Origin: a virus
Taxonomy: Duplodnaviria; Heunggongvirae; Uroviricota; Caudoviricetes
Direction: 5' to 3' (one strand)
Virus record (IMG/VR): IMGVR_UViG_2778261588_000004
Span: 1 to 35,326 of that record
Length of the DNA stretch: 35,326 bases
Below the pieces are notes generated by a model. The model was not told where the DNA came from, ran no database searches, and saw only the letters and a list, made by a program, of their open reading frames with translations. The position numbers and the translations under genes were made by a program. The stretch's first letter is position 1. Each line of letters begins with the position of its first letter. Positions 17,211-25,708 of this stretch are shown piece after piece.

Positions 17211-17520
17211 TTCTTCCCGGCAGTTTTCCTTTGTAGGTTATCCACACACTCTGCGCCTCTAAAATTATGGGGCGCTTTTCCGGCGACTGCTCATCCCCTC
17301 CACATAACCCGGCAGCAACATCCAGGAAGACCTGTCTGATGCTCCTTCTGGCTGCTGCCTCATAAAACTCCAGCGCGGCACCTTCAACACGGTCCAGCGA
17401 GATGTCCAGGTCAAAAATTTCACCGTCAAAGCGTTCTTTGTCCTGTAATGCTAAAGTTACCGTAACTTTATTCTCAAAATTGCGGATCCCTTTCACAATC
17501 ATTTCATAGTTTTGGACCAT
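17176..17520 (-). CDS. Hypothetical protein (114 aa) between holin and endolysin
   Basis: Starts 5 nt after the holin stop with GAGGAG upstream; same position as ydfR between essQ and rrrQ in the Qin prophage, but homology to YdfR/DUF1327 is not verified. Confidence 0.5.
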   Translation of the reverse strand: MVQNYEMIVKGIRNFENKVTVTLALQDKERFDGEIFDLDISLDRVEGAALEFYEAAARRSIRQVFLDVAAGLCGGDEQSPEKRPIILEAQSVWITYKGKLPGRITGSLKTPPKW

Positions 17521-17524
17521 TATA

Positions 17525-17740
17525 TTACTCTCCTCTCGCAGCCTTTCTTCTGTCTTCTCTGATTTTGAAGTACAGATTCGTCAGATAAGTCAGAAAGCCC
17601 AGAACCAGACTTCCCAGTACACCAATCGCAGCCCACTGAGACGGACTAACCTGATCAAGCCATTGTAAAAACCAGTAGCCAGCACTGCCTGCGGAGGTGC
17701 CGTAGGCAATGCCTGTTGATATTTTTTCCATCTGATACAT
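17525..17740 (-). CDS. S: Class II holin (phage 21 S21 / EssD-type pinholin), dual-start
   Basis: Two Met codons three codons apart ([30 protein letters not shown]...), two TM segments, charged C-terminus [13 protein letters not shown]; 71 aa from the first Met; the track ORF extends upstream. Confidence 0.85.
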
Positions 17741-17849
17741 ATCCCGCCCCAACAGACCTGTGCTACCGGAAAGAAAAAAGGCCATCAGCAAAACTCTGAT
17801 GGCCTGAATCACCTTTACCAGTCATGTATGAAAAAATACGCACAATCAA

Positions 17850-17978
17850 TTGACAATAATTATCATTTTCATTAAAAATACCGCGTAACATTCTTATTTC
17901 ATGAAGAACCATACCCGCCAGCAACCTGAGTAGCAAAAGCTGTTCATCCCCCATATTTTTGCTGGCGGGTTCTTTTTT
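17850..17978 (+). ncRNA. Candidate small RNA unit: sigma70-like promoter plus intrinsic terminator, antisense to the late leader
   Basis: Perfect -35 TTGACA (17850..17855), 17-18 nt spacer, A/T-rich -10 (TAAAAA/AAAAAT ~17873..17879); hairpin ACCCGCCAGCAA (17913..17924) / TTGCTGGCGGGT (17959..17970) then TCTTTTTT (17971..17978); no ORF with an RBS inside. Confidence 0.3.
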
Positions 17979-18203
17979 CTACTGCCCTCCTCCCCAGGAA
18001 AAGCATTTCATTCTTTTCTCATTAATCGTTACTGGAGAGAAGGCGGGAAAAAGCCAGCTCTTTGGCCCTAAATAACAGCATGGCTTCAGTCCATACAGAA
18101 TCTGATTTTCCAGCTCACATAATAACCAGATGATGCAGTTGCAAAATCTGGCAACATCGGATTATTATGCGCCTGTGAAAATTTCTTCACGTTTTATTCC
18201 TTG

Positions 18204-18235
18204 CCGCCCGTGCCTCCCAGCGCGGGCTTTTTTAT
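18204..18235 (+). terminator. Weak plus-strand hairpin plus T-run (half of a back-to-back terminator pair)
   Basis: GCCCG (18206..18210) / CGGGC (18223..18227) with 12-nt loop, then TTTTTT (18228..18233). Confidence 0.3.
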
Positions 18236-18262
18236 CCAAAAAATACCCCTCCGGAGAGGGGT
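18236..18262 (-). terminator. Intrinsic terminator in the late-operon leader (tR'-like candidate)
   Basis: Minus sense ACCCCTC-TCCG-GAGGGGT followed by ATTTTTTGG; ~480 nt upstream of the holin start. Confidence 0.5.
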
Positions 18263-18552
18263 ATCATACAAGGGGATGACCATAATGCATGGTGCCGGGT
18301 GCCTCCCGGTGAGTCCGGCATCAGCATACGAACCCGCGATTATCCCAGAACTGACTGCTGATTCGCCCCGCCGCTTAGGGGGATTCACCATGCGTTTTTT
18401 TATTTACAAACTCTTCGCCAGACAAACAACCATTAACTGGCTGAATTGTGAGGTATTTCAATTTTTAGAAAACTGACCAACCTCCGCTTATACGCCGGGC
18501 ATGGAGCGGATACAAAAAAGCCCCGCAAAAGCAGATCAGAAGGATTCGTTGT

Positions 18553-18592
18553 AAAAAAAAAGCTGTCAGATTATCGCGCTAATCTGACAGCT
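18553..18592 (-). terminator. Strong intrinsic terminator downstream of the methyltransferase gene
   Basis: Perfect 13-bp stem AGCTGTCAGATTA / TAATCTGACAGCT (18561..18573 / 18580..18592), 6-nt loop, followed in minus sense by a run of 8-9 U. Confidence 0.65.
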
Positions 18593-18833
18593 ACAGCAGG
18601 TATCCAAAAACATGGGTGGAAACAATAAGTGAGTTAAGAAGACACGGTGTCGGATTTTTACCGATGAGCCGTTGGCGTGGTCAACCGTGACTCGCTTGTA
18701 TCAACGATGAATTAATGAAGCCAATCCTTTGCAGGCTATGTACAACCCACCACATCAGCCCTGCTGCATTGCAGGATACACTGTATCTGTAATCATTATA
18801 CGGCACAGACATCCCACCAATAATTGAATTAAT

Positions 18834-19895
18834 TCACAAAATTGTATTTGCTGATAACATACTGATTTCCTGGATGGTCTGATTAAACCGCTCTGTCTCA
18901 AGCTCAACACCTAACGCCCGACGCCCCAGCGCCATTGCTGCTTTTATTGTGGAACCGGATCCCATAAAGAAATCAGCAACCAGATCGCCGGGTCGACTAC
19001 TGGCATTGATTATTTGCCTGAGCATATCCGCCGGTTTCTCACACGGATGTTTACCCGGGTAGAACTGAACGGGTTTATGCATCCAGACATCGGTATAAGG
19101 CACGGAGACTGATACGGAGAAATAGCGCCGGAGAGATTTAAACTCATCCAGCAATTCAGAATATTTGCGATTCAGTGAATCATAAGATGCCACCAACTGG
19201 TGGTGTGGTTGTTCCAGTTGTTGTTCCTGAAACTTCTCTGCCGCTATACGGGAAAACAGTGCCTGTAACTTCCGGTAGTCAGCCTCATTCGGCAACTGCC
19301 ACTGACTGGCACCAAACCAGTGGGAAACCATATTTTTCTTACCTGTGGCTTCGGCAATTTGTTTTGCCGTTATACCCAGTTCGGCACGAGCATCCCTGAA
19401 ATACGATATCAGCGGTGCCATTATGTGCTGTTTGAGTTCCCTTTCTTTTGCCACATAGCCGTCACTTTTGCCGCGATATGGCCCCCGGTAATGTTCAGCA
19501 AACAGAACGCGCTCTGTGGCAGGAAAATATGCGCGCAGACTTTCTTTATTACACCCATTCCAACGTCCGGACGGCTTCGCCCAGATGATATGGTTAAGCA
19601 CGTTGAAACGTTCACGCATCATGATCTCAATATCAGATGCCAGGCGATGCCCACAGAACAGGTAAAGGCTTCCGGCAGGTTTCAACACCCGCCAGAACTG
19701 GGCCAGACAGTGGTCCAGCCACTTAAGGTAATCTTCGTCCCCTTTCCACTGATTGTCCCAACCGTTGGGTTTCACCTTGAAGTAAGGCGGATCGGTAACA
19801 ATCAGGTCAATGGAATCATCAGGCAGGGACTGAATAAAATGCAGGCAATCAGCGTTGATTAAATCAATACTGTTTATTTTTACAGTGCTTTTCAT
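18834..19895 (-). CDS. DNA methyltransferase, beta-class (probably N6-adenine)
   Basis: 353 aa; motif IV DPPY near the N-terminus (LIVTDPPYF) and AdoMet motif I FFMGSGST near the C-terminus, the beta-class order; no adjacent restriction gene recognised. Confidence 0.85.
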   Translation of the reverse strand: MKSTVKINSIDLINADCLHFIQSLPDDSIDLIVTDPPYFKVKPNGWDNQWKGDEDYLKWLDHCLAQFWRVLKPAGSLYLFCGHRLASDIEIMMRERFNVLNHIIWAKPSGRWNGCNKESLRAYFPATERVLFAEHYRGPYRGKSDGYVAKERELKQHIMAPLISYFRDARAELGITAKQIAEATGKKNMVSHWFGASQWQLPNEADYRKLQALFSRIAAEKFQEQQLEQPHHQLVASYDSLNRKYSELLDEFKSLRRYFSVSVSVPYTDVWMHKPVQFYPGKHPCEKPADMLRQIINASSRPGDLVADFFMGSGSTIKAAMALGRRALGVELETERFNQTIQEISMLSANTIL

Positions 19896-20044
19896 GGATC
19901 AGTAAGCGTAACTCTGGTAGGCTCACTCTGCTTTTGCGCTAAAGCAGTGGGCCATGGTTCGCTTGTGACCAGTAAGCATGAGCGAATGGCTGGCAGGTGC
20001 TACCAACACCCACCAGCCGCCCATTTTCACAAATTAAAAGCCCT

Positions 20045-20239
20045 TCATTGCTGAAGGCGTCTGTAACAGCCGAACTGGTAATCTGCCAGCCCCGCCATAA
20101 CCAGCTGGGTCAGTATTAACTGACAGCGTTCGCGTGAAAGGTATGTGTTTTGTGCTATCTCCCCGACTGTTGCCGGTTTGCCGTTTAATTCATTAAAAAC
20201 AACTTTCGCCGTTTCTGTCATATCTTGCTGTTTTAGCAT
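20045..20239 (-). CDS. Small winged-helix protein, FaeA/PapI-like (tentative)
   Basis: 64 aa; VVFNELNGKPATVGEIAQNTYLSRERCQLILTQLVMAGL resembles the PapI/FaeA family of Dam-methylation-linked regulators; GAAGG 9 nt upstream of ATG. Confidence 0.45.
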   Translation of the reverse strand: MLKQQDMTETAKVVFNELNGKPATVGEIAQNTYLSRERCQLILTQLVMAGLADYQFGCYRRLQQ

Positions 20240-20420
20240 GTCTTTTTACCTTCATGGTTAACATGACATACCAATAACTCTTGTCTAAAAAGCCAGCAAG
20301 ATAAAAAGTCAGTATTCACGACCACCAGCGTGTTTACCGTACTGCACCAATGTTTAATTTATAAAAAAACCGCGAGAACGCGGTAAGTATTGTTAAAAAA
20401 AAACAGTAATTTCACTCAAC

Positions 20421-21023
20421 TTATTTAATACATTCTTTTGCTTGCGCATAATAAATTTTATGAGTATTAGCAAGCTTAACGAAGTTATACTTAACTGCCC
20501 CTAACAGGGTTCCAACTCTTGTATGCCCTTCCATTAAATGAAGCCCTGTTGTATTACTTTTCAGCAAAGCTCGATCTATAAAAAATGGAGGTTCACACCA
20601 TGTGCCAAAATTACACCAATGCGCTTTTATTTCATCATCCATAAATACATCGCCTTTACGGGTTGTGAAATCTTCAACGACCTCATGCAAAAAATCAGGG
20701 TAAGTAGCATTATCCCCGATAGTTAAAAAATTTTTAGTGGGAAGTTCAATCAATTTCCATTCGATTTGGTCAATATTAAGATCCCCATAAAGCTCCTGAA
20801 ATCTGTCATAACCTGCCAATCCATAATAAATCTCCTGAATTACAGGAGTGGGGGCGGCGATAGAATATTGCTCACGAAGTATTCTTTCAGCCTCAGGAGC
20901 TTTAAATATGGGTCTTTCTGAGAAAATAGGCAAAAGATCTCGGTATAACATCCATATCCCGTGTAAGAAAAAATAATTTAACCCGCTCGGCGGCGGGTTC
21001 TTGGACTCATCAACGGTAGACAT
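20421..21023 (-). CDS. Hypothetical protein (200 aa), AT-rich cargo gene next to Q
   Basis: Long ORF with clearly lower GC than flanking genes; possible promoter (TTGCAT-17-TAATAT) in the 81-nt gap after Q; possible PD-(D/E)xK-like residues (YPD ... DEIK); no family recognised. Confidence 0.55.
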   Translation of the reverse strand: MSTVDESKNPPPSGLNYFFLHGIWMLYRDLLPIFSERPIFKAPEAERILREQYSIAAPTPVIQEIYYGLAGYDRFQELYGDLNIDQIEWKLIELPTKNFLTIGDNATYPDFLHEVVEDFTTRKGDVFMDDEIKAHWCNFGTWCEPPFFIDRALLKSNTTGLHLMEGHTRVGTLLGAVKYNFVKLANTHKIYYAQAKECIK

Positions 21024-21104
21024 ACAAAGCCCATCGTTGGGAAAATATTATCCATATTTTTTGAGAAATGCAAGCATCATGTCGCCATCTTCGGTGAAAA
21101 TCAC

Positions 21105-21857
21105 TTATCTCGTCACCTTTCTCAATTGTGCTTCAGCGAATGCTTCTTCCTGCCAGCACTTTGTTACCAGTTTATCAATGACGTCTGCATATCCTTTGTA
21201 CCACTGATAATCAGTCAGGTCCGGTACCAGCTTCTGGACATGACGTCGTGCCAGTGTGGTCGGTAAACGACTAAACCGGTTTCCATTGCAACGCCCACAA
21301 ATCTTATAAACAGGCGCGCCATGAAGCCGGGTTCTTTTTTCATCCAGGACAATGCCTTTACCCTTACACCCTCTGCAAGCCGTGCTGACTTCTCCCTTAC
21401 CATGGCAATGCTGACATAATTCCTTCACCCACTCTTCCTTGATAACAGATTCCCCGCTTCTGGAGTGTTTCACCACTTCGCGCAATACACTATGAAATCC
21501 AGTACCAGCACAATGCTCACAGCGAGCCTTACTTGCCGCAGACCTGGAATAATCAGCAAAGGCAAAACTCACAAGGTAAGGGATGATCTGTAACCGGGTT
21601 TCTTCACTCAATTTGTTCAATGTCGGGTTATCCATTGCCATCGCGTAATTGAGCAGACCTTCAATCGCAAACTGAGGATCCTGAACACCAACTTTTGCCA
21701 GGAATAAGGCAAACCCAAGCGGTGCTTTCGACTGCACCATCCCCTGCGCAGCCATCACATCCGTAATCGTTAAACCACCTGAGCCTGTCGCCGGTGCGTC
21801 ATCGCTCAATTTTGGAGATTTTGGGGAGTAATATTTTGGTAAGGCTTCAAGGTTCAT
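21105..21857 (-). CDS. Q: Late-gene antitermination protein Q (long, zinc-finger-rich Q family)
   Basis: 250 aa with CEHCAGTG, CQHCHGKG, CRGCKGKG and CGRCNGN cysteine pairs; end of the nin-like region, upstream of the late and lysis genes. Confidence 0.7.
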   Translation of the reverse strand: MNLEALPKYYSPKSPKLSDDAPATGSGGLTITDVMAAQGMVQSKAPLGFALFLAKVGVQDPQFAIEGLLNYAMAMDNPTLNKLSEETRLQIIPYLVSFAFADYSRSAASKARCEHCAGTGFHSVLREVVKHSRSGESVIKEEWVKELCQHCHGKGEVSTACRGCKGKGIVLDEKRTRLHGAPVYKICGRCNGNRFSRLPTTLARRHVQKLVPDLTDYQWYKGYADVIDKLVTKCWQEEAFAEAQLRKVTR

Positions 21858-21870
21858 GCTCGTTCTCCAC

Positions 21871-22866
21871 TTACGCCAGTACGCCTATTGCCAGCGCATG
21901 ATCGATAAAACGAAATATCAGCTCCAGCTGGGAGCCATACATCTCTTCAAATGCCACGGTATCCGCATGCAGCTCGTCGTGATGCTTTCTGCACAAAGGC
22001 AACACAAAGAGGTCATGCGCTTTTGTACCCATTCCACCCTGACCATGGCCTATCAGGTGGTGGGGATCATCAGCAGGCTTTCCACAACATGCACACGGCT
22101 GTGTCTTAACCCAGCGCGTGTACTTTTCATTAACCCAGCGGCGACGTTTTGGGCGTAACATAAAAGACTCCGGCGACTCTGGATCCACTTTCAGCGCCAG
22201 CACCTTTTTCGCTTTATCCTGGATAATGCTGGTGGCAGGAACCGAAGGAACAAGGTCACTCTCCCGGGTGACAGACGGCACAACCGGCTTCGGTAATCTC
22301 AGTGCCTTACGGGCTGCACTTTCCGGTAAGGCATCCGCCAGGTCATTACGAACCAGCCACCAGCACAGTTCCGGCATTGTCACTACGTGACTGTCATCAA
22401 AACCGAGATCCCGACGCACGACAGATAACACCCAGTGGGCACAGTTATCCGTTGCCATTGATTCCAGCCGTTCCGTGAACTGATCGCGCAGCTGGTTATC
22501 GCAGTGCCAGCACAGACGGATTGCGCCCGGAGCGTGCCGCATTGTGGTCATGTTATCGCTGTGCCAGTCGGAATGAGGCCACTGGCAGCCTTTTTCACGA
22601 AGTAACCAGCTTTCAAGACATTCCACGCCACCAGCACGACGGATCACTGCCTCATTGCGAAACACGGCCCGAACGGCAGGATCATCCGCCAGCGGTTGTG
22701 ATGCCGCCGGAACGGCACCACTGGCGAAAGATGAATAACGTTCCGGCTCAGGCTCCAGCAGGACACGCCCCTGCATAAACAGGGGCATCAGCTCTGAACC
22801 TGGCCTGAACAATACGATCCCCATACGCGGGGCAATTTCAGGGGTCAGTAATGCTCTCACGGTCAC
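21871..22866 (-). CDS. DUF968-like prophage protein with C-terminal HNH-type zinc motif
   Basis: 331 aa; C-terminus ...QPCACCGKPADDPHHLIGHGQGGMGTKAHDLFVLPLCRKHHDELH; GTG start overlapping the KilA-N stop. Confidence 0.55.
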   Translation of the reverse strand: MTVRALLTPEIAPRMGIVLFRPGSELMPLFMQGRVLLEPEPERYSSFASGAVPAASQPLADDPAVRAVFRNEAVIRRAGGVECLESWLLREKGCQWPHSDWHSDNMTTMRHAPGAIRLCWHCDNQLRDQFTERLESMATDNCAHWVLSVVRRDLGFDDSHVVTMPELCWWLVRNDLADALPESAARKALRLPKPVVPSVTRESDLVPSVPATSIIQDKAKKVLALKVDPESPESFMLRPKRRRWVNEKYTRWVKTQPCACCGKPADDPHHLIGHGQGGMGTKAHDLFVLPLCRKHHDELHADTVAFEEMYGSQLELIFRFIDHALAIGVLA

Positions 22867-22867
22867 C

Positions 22868-23695
22868 TCAATGAACGGTATCGAGCAGCTTTAACAGCTC
22901 AGGGAATCGGGATTCGAAGAAATGCGGCTGCGTCTCGCGCGGATTTGCAGGACTGGTGATGTTCTTGCCGAACATGCAGCCTTTCGCGGTCAGCGACCAG
23001 AATTTTTTGATGTTGTTAATCGCGGTACGGCTGTATCGTTCGCGTTGTTCAACGATCCCCAGCTTCGCCATCTGGTGATATGCCTGATTAGCCGTCAGGC
23101 GGATACCATACTGTTTCAGCAGTGCACTCAGCGACAGCGTAGGGCGGCTTGAACCATCTGGCGCATCAGCAGGTGCATCAATGGCATAGATCGGCATAAG
23201 TTCAGGAAGACCAGCTACCTTTGATAATTTCTGGTATGCACCAAGTTTCGAGGAGTTTGACAGATTTAGAGTCTTTGCTGCTGATTCAAGCAGAATGACC
23301 CCGGATTTAATTTTGTCGGATGTGGTTTCTTCTGGTGATGAATTATGAAGCGCATCAAAAGTACGTATCACTTTTAAGCTGAATGCCGGGCTGATCCACA
23401 TTGCATATGCATAGACCAGCTCTTTACAGACATACGTCCCACCATTGCGCCCCTGAATGGTGATGACAGGAATACTACGGGAATCTCCCGTAGTTTCTTC
23501 TTCCAATAATTCCACAAGAGCCTTCGTTTCAGGACGACGCATAAACTCGTGAACTTCCAGCGAACGGGAGGAGCGATTCTCACCAGCGGCAAGAAGAGCA
23601 GCTTTCTGAAGGTCGTTAAGACAGTAGTTAGATTCGAAGTACTGGCGCACAGAAACGCCATCAATTACAAGCAACTGATTCATTGGTTTCTCCAC
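22868..23695 (-). CDS. KilA-N domain protein
   Basis: N-terminal ...ITIQGRNGGTYVCKELVYAYAMWISPAFSLKVIRTF fits the KilA-N/APSES signature. Confidence 0.65.
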   Translation of the reverse strand: MEKPMNQLLVIDGVSVRQYFESNYCLNDLQKAALLAAGENRSSRSLEVHEFMRRPETKALVELLEEETTGDSRSIPVITIQGRNGGTYVCKELVYAYAMWISPAFSLKVIRTFDALHNSSPEETTSDKIKSGVILLESAAKTLNLSNSSKLGAYQKLSKVAGLPELMPIYAIDAPADAPDGSSRPTLSLSALLKQYGIRLTANQAYHQMAKLGIVEQRERYSRTAINNIKKFWSLTAKGCMFGKNITSPANPRETQPHFFESRFPELLKLLDTVH

Positions 23696-24241: not shown

Positions 24242-24564
24242 ACTTTCAGGCCCCTCTCATGTAACCAGTGGGCTGCACGCAGCCTGGCGTTTTCCTCACC
24301 GGCAAGCAGTGAGCGGATAATCCCGACCGCCTCGCTGTCGTCGTCCTTCACCACGGTATGAAGCGTGATCCCCCGGGCCACACCACGCTTTATCGTGATG
24401 ACGCCTTTTTTCTCCAGTGCGCGAAGATGCTCCACCGCTGCATTCACTGAACGGTATCCCAGCATGGTTGCCACCTCCTGATTGGTTGGCGGGAAGCCAC
24501 GTTCTTTCTGATAAGAAATCAGCATATCCAGCACCTGCTGCTGGCATTGAGTTAACGTCGTCAT
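24238..24564 (-). CDS. LexA-type N-terminal DNA-binding domain protein (no peptidase domain)
   Basis: 108 aa; LTQCQQQVLDMLISYQKERGFPPTNQEVATMLGYRSVNAAVEHLRALEKKGVITIKRGVARGITL parallels the LexA winged-helix domain; ATGA coupling to neighbours. Confidence 0.6.
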   Translation of the reverse strand: MTTLTQCQQQVLDMLISYQKERGFPPTNQEVATMLGYRSVNAAVEHLRALEKKGVITIKRGVARGITLHTVVKDDDSEAVGIIRSLLAGEENARLRAAHWLHERGLKV

Positions 24565-25214
24565 GCCGCCATCTCCCTGACCAGTTTTTCCGCCTGCTGG
24601 CGAACCTGCGCCAGAAACGCCTCACCACATGCCTCAAGTTCATCGCGCCCGATGTAGCTGATTGCCGGTCCCTTCCAGGTCTTGTCGAAAACAGCAATAG
24701 CACCAGCGAAGAAAGCGCCTGTCGGCACCTGCTTCTCATCTTTCGGGATAAACCAGGCAGGCAGTTCAAAACCAATACGCCCGCGAATAAAAGCAATATG
24801 ATCTGCATCTTCCGGCCACCACACTTCGCTGGTGGCAGCTTTGATCAGGAAAACATAGCGCCCGCCTTTATCACGCATGGCACTGGCATGTTTCATGATG
24901 TAACGCATGCCGGTGATGTATTGCCCCTCATGCTGACTGGCGCGGCTGTATGGGGGATTACCAAAGGCAGCACCTTTAAGCTCCGCAAGACGTTCTGACC
25001 AGTCATGCGCCAGCGCGTTGTCTTCCGCCGTGTAATACGCGGTACATTTGGCGTTATCACCGTCAGTAAACAGATCCAGGACAAACGGGCCAAACAGGGT
25101 GTTAATTCCCCAGAAAATGTTATCCGGCGTGCGCCACTGATCGCCCACTTCCTTCAGTTCATGGGCTGGTTTGTTCCGCAGCTCCACCAGCTCCTGGCAA
25201 TATTTATTACTCAT
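24561..25214 (-). CDS. Phage-type N6-adenine DNA methyltransferase (Dam-like)
   Basis: FGNPPYS catalytic motif; likely start at the internal Met at 25214 (MSNKYCQ...), tightly coupled to the upstream gene stop. Confidence 0.78.
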   Translation of the reverse strand: MSNKYCQELVELRNKPAHELKEVGDQWRTPDNIFWGINTLFGPFVLDLFTDGDNAKCTAYYTAEDNALAHDWSERLAELKGAAFGNPPYSRASQHEGQYITGMRYIMKHASAMRDKGGRYVFLIKAATSEVWWPEDADHIAFIRGRIGFELPAWFIPKDEKQVPTGAFFAGAIAVFDKTWKGPAISYIGRDELEACGEAFLAQVRQQAEKLVREMAA

Positions 25215-25708
25215 TAAGCCCCCACGTAATTCCCTGACAGATACCACTCATCACCCGATACAGCGCGCTTGCTGCTTTTCCGTAAGCACCGCTCACGACG
25301 TGCCAGAAAATTGTTTCGTTCTGGCTGGGAGTGGCTTTCACGGAATGCCGCCATCCACACGGTTGCAGCACGACGGTATAAGCCCCTGGACTCCAGTTCT
25401 TCAGCCTGGCGGGTCAGGCACAAAATCACCCGGGGGTCGTTAGTGCCGACATAGAAATTGCGCACAGGTCTGGTTTCACGAACAGGTTGTGGTTCCGGCT
25501 CCTGCGCTCTCTCAGTCAGGCGCGGGAAATGTCTGCGTGTATCTCCTTCACAACGGTGAGCCACACGCCCACTCTGACGTAACTTGCTTGCTGACTGCAG
25601 AACGCGCTGCCGTGAGTAACCTGCAAAAGCATCCGCAATGTCTCCGGAAGTACAGCCCGGATGGGCTTCAATGAATTTCTGAACTTCATTCAAAAGACTC
25701 ATGATCAC
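25214..25708 (-). CDS. YfdN-like prophage protein with PerC-like motif (tentative)
   Basis: 164 aa; AEELESRGLYRRAATVWMAAF resembles the PerC/Pch signature; same size and position as yfdN in CPS-53; from memory only. Confidence 0.45.
   Translation of the reverse strand: MIMSLLNEVQKFIEAHPGCTSGDIADAFAGYSRQRVLQSASKLRQSGRVAHRCEGDTRRHFPRLTERAQEPEPQPVRETRPVRNFYVGTNDPRVILCLTRQAEELESRGLYRRAATVWMAAFRESHSQPERNNFLARRERCLRKSSKRAVSGDEWYLSGNYVGA

Follow-up and report, generated by a model that had tools for sequence, protein, structure and literature searches.

Two elements, probably independent, opening a lambdoid late operon: an orphan adenine methyltransferase cassette and an AT-rich moron

Introduction

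When a prophage carries a DNA methyltransferase gene beside other cargo, do these genes constitute a compact restriction-like system or are they passengers of separate origin? The question is raised by a 35,326-nucleotide stretch of viral DNA (the window) in which three co-oriented ORFs lie on the minus strand at 20421-21023, 20045-20239 and 18834-19895, between the gene for the antiterminator Q and that for a P21-type holin. A preliminary description correctly recognized these as lambdoid prophage cargo occupying the slot between Q and lysis and proposed that they could form a single restriction-modification-like, methylation-dependent regulatory or defence module, with the first product, read as 200 aa, as a possible PD-(D/E)xK nuclease. 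We argue here that the region probably comprises two independent elements in the first part of the late operon rather than a three-gene system: a conserved cassette of a probable winged-helix gene, an apparently structured leader of ~150 nt and an M.EcoGII-family methyltransferase, and, apart from it, an AT-rich moron. Most of what emerges is unremarkable; two details are new, if modest.

The late control region and the inserted cassette

Positions 18600-21200 of the window match an E. coli prophage at 100% identity, and 18834-21023 is the start of its lambdoid late operon. Q, a protein of 250 aa, is encoded at 21105-21857 on the minus strand (PF03589 Antiterm, 1.7e-53; phrog_127), and the P21-type holin (17525-17812) marks the other end of the slot. 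Right after Q lies a candidate late promoter, pR’ (21030-21073, minus strand), with a -35 element TTGCAT at 21073-21068, a 17-nt spacer and a -10 element TAATAT at 21050-21045. It ends in a pause element read from the sequence, AACGATGGG (21038-21030, minus strand), and the same AACGATGGG occurs in lambda pR’, 6 nt past its -10. The tR’ hairpin AACCCGC..GCGGGTT (20980-20999, minus strand), recovered by a terminator scan, completes the pR’-qut-tR’ layout of a promoter directly following Q, a -10-like pause element and an intrinsic terminator. The pR’ region is nearly identical in phages SfV and mEp460, the pause element and tR’ stem are likewise common to all three, and the SfV annotation itself calls the tR’ hairpin a terminator. 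From these sequence features we infer that pR’ acts as a promoter.

A three-way alignment places the junction of the insertion at the tail of this hairpin. In SfV and mEp460 the identical stem is followed by TTTTTTTGTGCC, whereas in the window the U-tract is swapped for AAATTATTTTTT and is degraded relative to SfV. Between the tR’ stem and the resumption of SfV-shared sequence, alignment and composition delimit a segment of ~629 bp (20351-20979, minus strand) with a GC content of 0.36. Q, the 64-aa gene and the methyltransferase gene have 0.47-0.48, a difference that bears out the AT-richness first ascribed to the leading gene of the trio. The terminator scan also found an intrinsic terminator within this segment (ACCGCG TTCT CGCGGT followed by T7; 20362-20384, minus strand), lying between the leading gene and the other two. 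By alignment, the 629-bp cassette is a moron inserted exactly at the tR’ tail and equipped with its own terminator. A separate promoter had been suggested for the AT-rich gene, but all six promoter-like matches in a scan of 17500-21300 fell on the opposite strand and none served the cassette. The very strong terminator noted after the methylase gene is real (13-bp stem and T9; 18561-18592, minus strand), though it stands ~240 nt past the stop codon. The window holds no tRNA genes, and a weak SgrS-like match at 17774-17870 was below threshold and taken as chance.

The leading ORF, judged against its relatives, is over-extended, because every homologue begins at M25; the real product is 176 aa (20421-20951, minus strand), the length annotated by RefSeq in other strains. 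Codons 1-24 of the longer version correspond to the conserved pR’ leader and tR’ hairpin, both of which SfV and mEp460 carry without an ORF behind them, and merely 17 nt separate the tR’ tail from the true ATG. At loci with the same Q type, the gap between Q and the 64-aa gene takes three forms: ~252 nt and empty (19 loci), ~929 nt, the spacing of an mEp460-type lipoprotein gene (seven loci), or ~866 nt, which corresponds to the 176-aa cassette (seven loci).

A common orphan methyltransferase of the M.EcoGII family

The third gene (18834-19895, minus strand) encodes a 353-aa enzyme that was rightly identified at the outset as a beta-class N6-adenine DNA methyltransferase. It matches PF01555 N6_N4_Mtase with 144.9 bits against a cut-off of 26.7 and PADLOC MTase_II at 3.7e-150, and displays the beta-class motif order, with TDPPYF near the N-terminus (residues 34-39) and FFMGSGST toward the C-terminus (residues 309-316). 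Its identity is 80% to M.EcoGII over the full length, 88% to the reconstructed Anc291 and 81% to the phage 1720a-02 enzyme, the M.EcoGII and Anc291 values being approximate since those sequences come from machine-read PDF supplement text with a few read errors. The target-recognition region is the part most diverged from M.EcoGII. Of 5,426 E. coli genomes at least 1,235 carry the enzyme, mostly without the 176-aa gene, and by sequence it classifies as a common orphan phage methyltransferase of the M.EcoGII family. No cognate endonuclease is co-conserved beside it; its only constant neighbours are the 64-aa gene and the leader, while the flanking slots vary.

Murray et al. 2018 (PMC5778455) describe M.EcoGII and M.EcoGI as non-specific adenine methyltransferases of E. 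coli O104:H4 prophages, with M.EcoGII silent in the lysogen and deleterious if expressed. Ochiai et al. 2024 (PMC11551740) assign the M.EcoGII clade mostly to enterobacterial prophages, report that its ancestral forms are likewise non-site-specific and present M.EcoGII as requiring no second protein for activity. By analogy with this 80% identical enzyme, the window methyltransferase would methylate adenines largely or wholly irrespective of sequence context.

The 64-aa gene and the leader of the methyltransferase

The second gene of the trio (20045-20239, minus strand; phrog_331) and the methyltransferase gene belong together. Of 79 IMG/VR methylase loci with upstream sequence (80 loci overall), 77 have the 64-aa gene 5’ of the methylase and the other two keep truncated remnants of it. 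The pairing, which holds in phages of six other genera, is seen with a spacer of 138-153 nt in SfV, mEp460, 1720a-02, Stx2a WGPS2, Hafnia, Morganella, Providencia, Salmonella and K. michiganensis, in contexts that span three Q families and differing holins. To this extent the proposal of a linked module stands.

The resemblance of the 64-aa protein to PapI/FaeA regulators did not hold up: Pfam FaeA/PapI gives no match even at E ≤ 10, and at most a common winged-helix fold is shared. NCBI names the protein ‘TrmB family transcriptional regulator’, and a Pfam search returns TrmB, MarR_2, DprA_WH and Rrf2, all of them winged-helix matches under the cut-offs. Its profile retrieves from the PDB the wH domain of an O-methyltransferase (7wdq, E 0.0055), and the family, of 548 clusters, has an invariant helix, RCQL.LTQ..AGL. 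We regard it as a probable small winged-helix protein. The orf-64 of lambda, of equal length and in the equal slot, has no similarity to it.

Conservation of the ~150-nt spacer between the two genes roughly equals or exceeds that of the coding DNA on either side. Its covariation is consistent with a five-helix structured RNA leader 5’ of the methylase (19902-20023, minus strand), in which the covariation model places P0 at 20023-20019 paired with 19952-19948, P2 at 19986-19981 with 19963-19958, P3 at 19947-19928 and P4 at 19926-19921 with 19907-19902, together with a P1 hairpin at 20018-19988 that has invariant GGCTGG/CCAGCC arms. Across 27 diverse sequences, 90.3% of cells in these helices pair, as against 29-48% in slid controls, nine pairs are altered on both sides, as against 2-4, and 0 of 500 shuffles attain the observed values—figures to be read with the fact that the structure was partly built from these same sequences, themselves chosen for invariant P1 arms. 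The terminator scan adds a hairpin across the stop codon of the 64-aa gene (20042-20057, minus strand), with a U-rich tail after it, whose stem is preserved between alleles by compensatory changes. No Rfam family matches the leader, its invariant 12-mer has no further copies in the window beyond chance, and the methylase AUG has no obvious Shine-Dalgarno sequence.

We propose that this cassette, situated behind pR’ and tR’, would be transcribed solely upon Q antitermination, a timing that would fit the published silence of M.EcoGII in lysogens (PMC5778455). The enzyme would then methylate the adenines of replicated phage DNA ahead of packaging, and the methylated progeny DNA would be shielded from many restriction systems. 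The winged-helix protein and the leader could plausibly, though we stop just short of calling it probable, act jointly in limiting or timing the output of a methylase whose overproduction is toxic. On this model the protein recognizes the invariant GGCTGG...CCAGCC element, in DNA or in RNA, and the helices beside the methylase AUG restrain translation.

Alternatively, the 64-aa protein might not regulate expression at all, but be a partner that tempers or targets the methylase in an antitoxin-like manner, or a reader of methylated DNA. The strict linkage across genera is compatible with such a role, as are the deleterious effect of M.EcoGII expressed alone (PMC5778455) and the sensing of 6mA by some prokaryotic winged-helix domains (PMC11037411). 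We nevertheless consider it unlikely: two allelic forms of the protein, only ~52% identical, adjoin methylases sharing 96-98% identity, a disparity that speaks against a closely co-evolving contact surface, and the invariant element adjoining the gene better suits a nucleic-acid ligand.

The 176-aa protein: a predicted ParB/Srx-fold protein with a probably separate history

The nuclease reading of the first gene relied on a YPD...DEIK arrangement. Among 120 aligned sequences none of its residues is invariant; in most homologues the lysine is alanine and the first aspartate glutamate, and the aspartate of YPD varies. Structure prediction likewise yields no restriction-endonuclease-like fold. 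Instead, the C-terminal domain (residues 56-176) models confidently as a ParB/Srx fold similar to solved members, and is preceded by an extra N-terminal four-helix domain. Between the strand at 137-139 and the helix at 144-154 of the model lies a segment, E141-G142-H143-T144-R145, that we matched by eye to the GxxR motif; R145 never varies among the 120 aligned sequences, and 90% or more of them keep E141 and G142. Given this phosphate-binding motif within a predicted ParB/Srx-fold domain, the protein most likely binds an NTP.

Neither the single sequence nor the 120-sequence profile matches anything in Pfam, NCBIfam, PADLOC or the PDB sequences; Pfam ParBc in particular is not matched by the protein and is absent among the matches listed for the 120 homologues (25 of 32 families). 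The family comprises ~306 representative clusters, to which neither Pfam nor PHROG assigns a function, and its longer members (254-360 aa) have no recognizable fused domain. Our literature searches found no description of either the 176-aa or the 64-aa protein.

The phyletic pattern of the gene sets it apart from the pair downstream. It is present in 90 of the 5,426 E. coli genomes and at seven of the 80 methylase loci, being missing from the other 73, and in Klebsiella and Salmonella prophages it directly follows Q without the methylase. The order in Klebsiella is Q, tR’, the 176-aa homologue, a terminator and the holin; the homologues there also bear a terminator behind the gene, and the tR’ ahead of them keeps an intact U-tract. 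Distant homologues are chromosomal and outside phage late operons. Their neighbours include a retron II-A with a type I HsdR, Lamassu LmuB, PDC-S31 and ParE/PhD, such defence genes being found in three to four of 12 contexts, although prophages and islands co-localise anyway. No neighbour gene recurs save in one closely related locus pair.

We tentatively favour the view that the 176-aa protein is a stand-alone conflict protein whose part would be in defence, exclusion or counter-defence, with Osa, a DNase/ATPase of ParB/Srx fold, as a parallel, while holding this to be somewhat short of an even proposition. Because the insertion removed the tR’ U-tract, the moron would perhaps be read from the constitutive pR’. 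A bolder version is that the protein is the founding member of a family, so far unannotated, of stand-alone ParB/Srx-fold conflict proteins that reside in defence islands next to retrons, Lamassu and type I restriction-modification systems, and that the prophage moron captures constitutive pR’ by replacing the tR’ U-tract and bringing a new terminator, so that the lysogen makes an NTP-dependent exclusion factor from a gene with no dedicated promoter; taken as a whole, this is rather unlikely.

The intact U-tract in Klebsiella points to late, Q-dependent expression there, which fits a lytic-cycle role better than defence of the lysogen. The 176-aa protein might accordingly be an ordinary late lytic function, for instance nucleotide-dependent processing of host or phage DNA, expressed through Q antitermination and without any role in the lysogen or in defence. 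In keeping with this, the gene is always the first behind pR’/tR’ in the prophages of four enterobacterial genera examined, and it lacks a detectable promoter. Yet it is dispensable, most related phages being without it; its composition is moron-like and it brings its own terminator; and the distant homologues lie on chromosomes, outside late operons and beside defence genes. This makes a purely lytic function doubtful.

More improbable still is that the 176-aa protein is a detachable helper of the methylase. Its role would be to load or activate the enzyme on dsDNA, either as half of a split ParB-N6_N4 fusion or as the equivalent of the ParB-like protein that activates phage thymine dioxygenases. 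There are precedents for both, in that ParB-CTPase folds are often fused to PF01555 in phages (PMC12704722) and, for a stand-alone ParB of a phage, activation of the cognate dioxygenase on dsDNA is described (PMC13229309), and the two genes are neighbours both here and in Hafnia. But M.EcoGII is described as fully active alone (PMC11551740), 73 of the 80 close methylase loci manage without the gene, it occurs in prophages where no methylase of this kind lies closer than 5 kb, and its distant homologues lack a recurrent neighbour, none of ten that were scanned matching a methyltransferase family. The known fusions of ParB folds with N6_N4 methylases, and the renewed co-occurrence in Hafnia, do leave room for some functional link between the two proteins.

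As for a single module built around a PD-(D/E)xK nuclease, it is hardly credible: the genes are adjacent and co-oriented, and the trio is found again in the 90 E. coli genomes and in Hafnia, where an additional gene intervenes, but the co-occurrence data already contradict it in both directions, the presumed catalytic lysine is unconserved in what models as a ParB/Srx fold, a terminator stands between the 176-aa gene and the other two, no restriction partner is present and M.EcoGII-type enzymes are orphans active alone (PMC5778455, PMC11551740). What survives of the defence proposal concerns one gene, in that the AT-rich gene by itself may be conflict or defence related.

Implications

With two independent elements as the probable reading, the apparent compact restriction-like module resolves into a well-known orphan phage methylase cassette and unrelated cargo, and a widely propagated 200-aa annotation proves to be 24 codons too long. 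M.EcoGII is a reagent in wide use, and to our knowledge its natural control is undescribed. Neither the 64-aa gene nor the leader is mentioned in the available text of Murray et al. 2018 (PMC5778455) and Ochiai et al. 2024 (PMC11551740). The constant, probably winged-helix gene and the covarying 5’ leader offer a direct way into the question of how a phage keeps a toxic, non-specific methylase in check. The 176-aa proteins, for their part, appear to form a family of small ParB/Srx-fold proteins, which profile-based surveys would miss, that spans first genes of late operons and defence islands and provides a cheap candidate for defence and exclusion screens.

Comparison with known systems

The predicted fold of the 176-aa protein (residues 56-176) and its strand-G-x-x-R-helix motif resemble those of sulfiredoxin, PadC, the N-terminal part of pNOB8 ParB, and Osa, a 189-aa plasmid fertility-inhibition DNase/ATPase. 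Like other small ParB/Srx members it is the product of a small stand-alone gene on a mobile element; it differs from them in its N-terminal four-helix domain, in having no Box III region and in that neither Pfam ParBc nor any PDB chain matches it by sequence.

The 64-aa protein shares with PapI and FaeA its small size, a probable winged helix and a link to adenine methylation. It differs in lacking a profile match and in its setting, a phage late operon rather than a fimbrial switch, and where their partner methylase is Dam, its neighbour is an M.EcoGII-family enzyme, non-specific by analogy. The controller (C) proteins of restriction-modification systems offer another parallel, namely a small putative DNA-binding protein whose gene lies just 5’ of one for modification and close to an inverted repeat; they contain an Xre-type HTH rather than the probable winged helix predicted here, no restriction gene accompanies the window methylase, and the repeat lies downstream of the 64-aa gene, within the putative RNA leader.

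The methyltransferase itself resembles M.EcoGII and M.EcoGI in its beta-class order and its prophage setting, with a full-length identity of 80% to M.EcoGII, and phage 1720a-02 encodes a very similar enzyme between Q and stx, behind a small gene that is 92% identical. The closest counterparts of the locus are SfV orf47-orf48 and mEp460_052-053, which have the same Q, pR’, tR’, 64-aa gene, spacer and methylase, with 95-98% protein identity. The three part company in the interval from tR’ to the 64-aa gene, which is empty in SfV, holds a lipoprotein gene in mEp460 and is occupied by the 176-aa cassette in the window.

Organization of the prophage downstream of Q

The window represents an E. coli lambdoid prophage; its positions 18600-21200 match strain FDAARGOS_1058 at 100% identity, and the annotation of that strain lists, in lambdoid order, genes for tail and head, lysis, Q, replication and immunity. 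On the minus strand, genes for a KilA-N protein (22868-23695), a DUF968/HNH protein (21871-22866) and the antiterminator Q (21105-21857; PF03589) are followed by ORFs of 200 aa (20421-21023) and 64 aa (20045-20239) and by a gene for a 353-aa N6_N4 methyltransferase (18834-19895); beyond a stretch of ~1 kb without long ORFs come a P21-type holin (17525-17812), a DUF1327 protein and a lysozyme. The preliminary description had located the three central ORFs correctly, and its remark that the first is AT-rich holds, the cassette carrying it having a GC content of 0.36 against 0.47-0.48 in its neighbors.

In the ORF-poor stretch between methylase and holin, 18234-18422 (minus strand) matches the Rfam sRNA STnc100 over its full length (115 bits, E 2e-25), with the terminator 18265-18242 forming the 3' end. 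This sRNA is known from prophages and has lately been related to PasD (bioRxiv 10.64898/2026.05.13.724894). The early region contains a second adenine methyltransferase gene (24561-25247, minus strand), which has an NPPY motif and is labeled "phage N-6-adenine-methyltransferase" in RefSeq; the prophage thus has one methylase there and one in its late operon.

The methylase, its small upstream gene and the intervening leader

The methyltransferase bears DPPY towards its N-terminus and FxGxG towards its C-terminus, in agreement with its prior recognition as a beta-class adenine methylase, and is 81% identical to the phage 1720a-02 enzyme, 80% to M.EcoGII and 88% to Anc291, the reconstructed ancestor of the M.EcoGII clade (the latter two sequences from the supplement of PMC11551740). 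PMC5778455 characterizes M.EcoGII as a non-specific adenine methylase carried by a prophage, not expressed in the lysogen and harmful if it is, and proposes that the prophage turns it on in starting a new infection; PMC11551740 places the clade mainly in enterobacterial prophages and has the enzyme working without partner proteins, its ancestral forms being likewise largely non-site-specific. The gene is common: Megablast, which picks up relatives of ~80% DNA identity incompletely, recovers it from at least 1,235 of 5,426 complete E. coli genomes. In no context examined does an endonuclease gene lie beside the methylase. GATC, a Dam site, directly precedes the start codon of the methylase (19896-19901, minus strand; TGATCCATG). 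Most versions from E. coli, Salmonella, Klebsiella and Morganella keep it; the Hafnia version does not have it (CATCCATG).

Among 80 IMG/VR loci with a close methylase relative, 79 have enough upstream sequence to judge, and in 77 of these the small gene lies ~150 nt upstream of the methylase; the other two retain truncated remnants of it, one adjoining an IS1-like transposase fragment. The same arrangement occurs in SfV, mEp460, 1720a-02 and an Stx2a phage, as well as in prophages or phages of Hafnia, Morganella, Providencia, Salmonella and Klebsiella michiganensis, and it is kept across three Q families and several holin families. The linkage is thus strict in the loci and phages examined. 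The 64-aa protein itself gives only sub-threshold matches to winged-helix families (TrmB, MarR_2, DprA_WH), and a seven-sequence profile of it hits a PDB O-methyltransferase in its winged-helix domain (E 0.0055); NCBI labels many members "TrmB family transcriptional regulator". As no FaeA/PapI match appears even at E<=10, the PapI/FaeA likeness proposed before reduces to, at most, a common fold class. The small gene comes in two allelic forms, of 64 and 67 aa, with only ~52% identity, which have in common the N-terminus and a helix RCQL.LTQ..AGL and adjoin methylases 96-98% identical and near-identical spacers. In mEp460 (L013), L023 and the other IMG/VR loci, the divergence stops at a hairpin over the stop codon, and the flanks are near-identical, a pattern that suggests cassette-like exchange or diversifying selection. 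Lambda orf-64 (L117 222-416), an ORF of equal length that lies between Q and S and overlaps the pR'-tR' transcript, has no similarity to the 64-aa protein and was rejected as its counterpart.

The spacer between the two genes (19902-20023, minus strand) appears, from comparison of its versions, to be a conserved RNA leader with covariation. It is conserved about as well as the flanking genes, or better; against Morganella it is 69% identical, and the two coding regions 55% and 66%. A predicted five-helix structure was evaluated on 27 diverse versions, from a pattern scan of viral contigs and the earlier loci: 90.3% of cells pair (slid controls 29-48%), nine pairs are changed on both sides (controls 2-4) and the covariation score is 0.123 (controls 0.03-0.07), values reached by none of 500 shuffles, in a set that was chosen on invariant arms and from which the structure was itself partly drawn. 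One pair is C-G in 10 sequences, U-A in eight and A-U in seven, and the arms of the long hairpin, GGCTGG and CCAGCC, are invariant. The last helix ends 6 nt 5' of the methylase AUG, which has no obvious Shine-Dalgarno sequence. No Rfam family matches the leader.

The first gene after Q is an independent cargo inserted at tR'

Directly 3' of the Q stop codon the window has TTGCAT, 17 nt, TAATAT, TTTCCC and AACGATGGG; lambda pR' has TTGACT, 17 nt, TAAATT, TGACTC and AACGATGGG, and this matching offset places the -10-like pause element equally in both. Downstream of it a terminator scan finds a hairpin at 20999-20980. The stretch from pR' to this hairpin, including the ATG at 21023, is near-identical in SfV and mEp460, which have no ORF behind it, and the SfV annotation calls the hairpin a terminator. 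The protein homologues all start at the equivalent of M25 of the 200-aa ORF, the PHROG profile spans residues 25-196, the RefSeq model is 176 aa in other strains (protein 94% identical) and 200 aa in the identical strain (L001 20822-21424), and in four genera the start equivalent to M25 has a Shine-Dalgarno-like sequence ahead of it. Hence, the real gene spans 20421-20951, for a product of 176 aa, and the 24 codons that the longer ORF has in front (20952-21023, minus strand) are the pR' leader and tR'.

Aligned with SfV, the cassette is inserted exactly after the tR' stem (SfV GCGGGTTTTTTTGTGCC, window GCGGGTTAAATTATTTTTT) and ends in its own terminator (20384-20362), which may act as a replacement for tR'. 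The insertion has replaced the tR' U-tract (20968-20999, minus strand; SfV GCGGGTTTTTTTGTG), and weaker termination of the constitutive pR' transcript is therefore expected. The synteny survey that had been proposed for this slot, run on loci with the same Q type, gives a Q-to-small-gene gap of ~252 nt with nothing inserted, as in SfV, in 19 loci, ~929 nt, the spacing of mEp460 with its lipoprotein gene, in seven, and ~866 nt, the 176-aa cassette, in seven. Other occupants of the slot between tR' and the small gene are varied: in mEp460 (L013 4076-4492, mEp460_051), a protein of 138 aa that carries a lipoprotein signal (..LVGC), with a second tR'-like terminator beside its gene; a 139-aa protein without known function in a Salmonella prophage (L112 3424-3843); and two opposite-strand genes in an Stx2a phage (L109).

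The distribution of the 176-aa gene marks it as independent cargo: it is present in seven of the 80 methylase loci and in 90 of the 5,426 E. coli genomes, and homologues of ~50% identity are the first gene after Q in Klebsiella oxytoca, Salmonella and Hafnia. In the Klebsiella prophages the order is Q, intact tR', homologue, terminator and holin, without the methylase, which is likewise missing from the Salmonella prophage; in Hafnia an opposite-strand gene intervenes before the small gene and methylase. A single restriction-like or defense module of three genes is accordingly not supported. The preliminary description is partly confirmed, since the small protein and methylase do form a pair; its alternative of unrelated genes fits the first gene, which is far rarer than the methylase and also found without it.

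The 176-aa protein is a predicted member of the ParB/Srx fold class

The 176-aa protein has no sequence match in Pfam, NCBIfam, PADLOC or the PDB and belongs to phrog_8867, a PHROG without assigned function. A profile search recovers 306 representative clusters, mostly of ~170-180 aa. W112, W118 and R145 never vary across 120 aligned sequences, and E141 and G142 are present in at least 90% of these, within HW...GTW.EPP and LHL.EGHTR.G.L.G; the residues formerly proposed as a PD-(D/E)xK-like motif lack conservation. The full-length model (pLDDT 79) gives weak matches, including sulfiredoxin, ParB-N and PadC, with a ParB dimer as the top Foldseek match. As the E-G-H-T-R of the model falls at a strand-helix junction, the position of the GxxR phosphate-binding motif of the ParB/Srx superfamily, we place the protein, on its predicted structure, in that fold class, though by sequence it is outside Pfam ParBc; it is probably an NTP binder.

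More distant, chromosomal homologues have no conserved neighbor common to them. Several adjoin defense genes: a type II-A retron (NDT and RT) and a type I HsdR in Accumulibacter (L019 4084-10517), Lamassu LmuB in Planctomycetia (L020 1338-5198) and the PADLOC candidate PDC-S31/DUF2971 in a prophage remnant (L106 4825-5760); another lies beside a ParE/PhD toxin-antitoxin pair. One subgroup, from marine gammaproteobacteria, has a conserved 169-174-aa gene without a family match (L014 6518-7027, from an uncultured Psychromonas; L103 3044-3568) 13-22 nt behind the homologue, and the two may form a two-gene unit.

Proposed mechanism and relation to known systems

As in lambda, pR' would be constitutive and halted at tR'. 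Q-modified polymerase would pass tR', the terminator of the cassette and the hairpin that closes the small gene, and with such readthrough the methylase would be made late. It could then modify adenines throughout the replicated phage DNA before packaging, blunting restriction in the next host. We infer that the small protein and leader jointly set the amount of methylase made; that they hold a toxic enzyme in check has nearly even chances.

For the 176-aa protein we tentatively favor, by analogy, a stand-alone role in conflict like that of Osa. With the U-tract of tR' lost through the insertion, the 176-aa gene may be expressed in the lysogen; the intact tR' ahead of the Klebsiella homologue argues for purely late expression there. 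A role as helper of the methylase would fit the common fusion of ParB-fold domains to N6_N4 methylases in phages (PMC12704722) and the activation of a thymine dioxygenase by a stand-alone phage ParB (PMC13229309), but the patterns of co-occurrence, and the fact that M.EcoGII suffices by itself, make it improbable.

Modestly new are the correction of the gene model, the placing of an unannotated family in the ParB/Srx class, the leader with its covariation and the insertion at the tR' tail; the methylase had been described before, and sequenced phages, SfV among them, carry the cassette of small gene and methylase.
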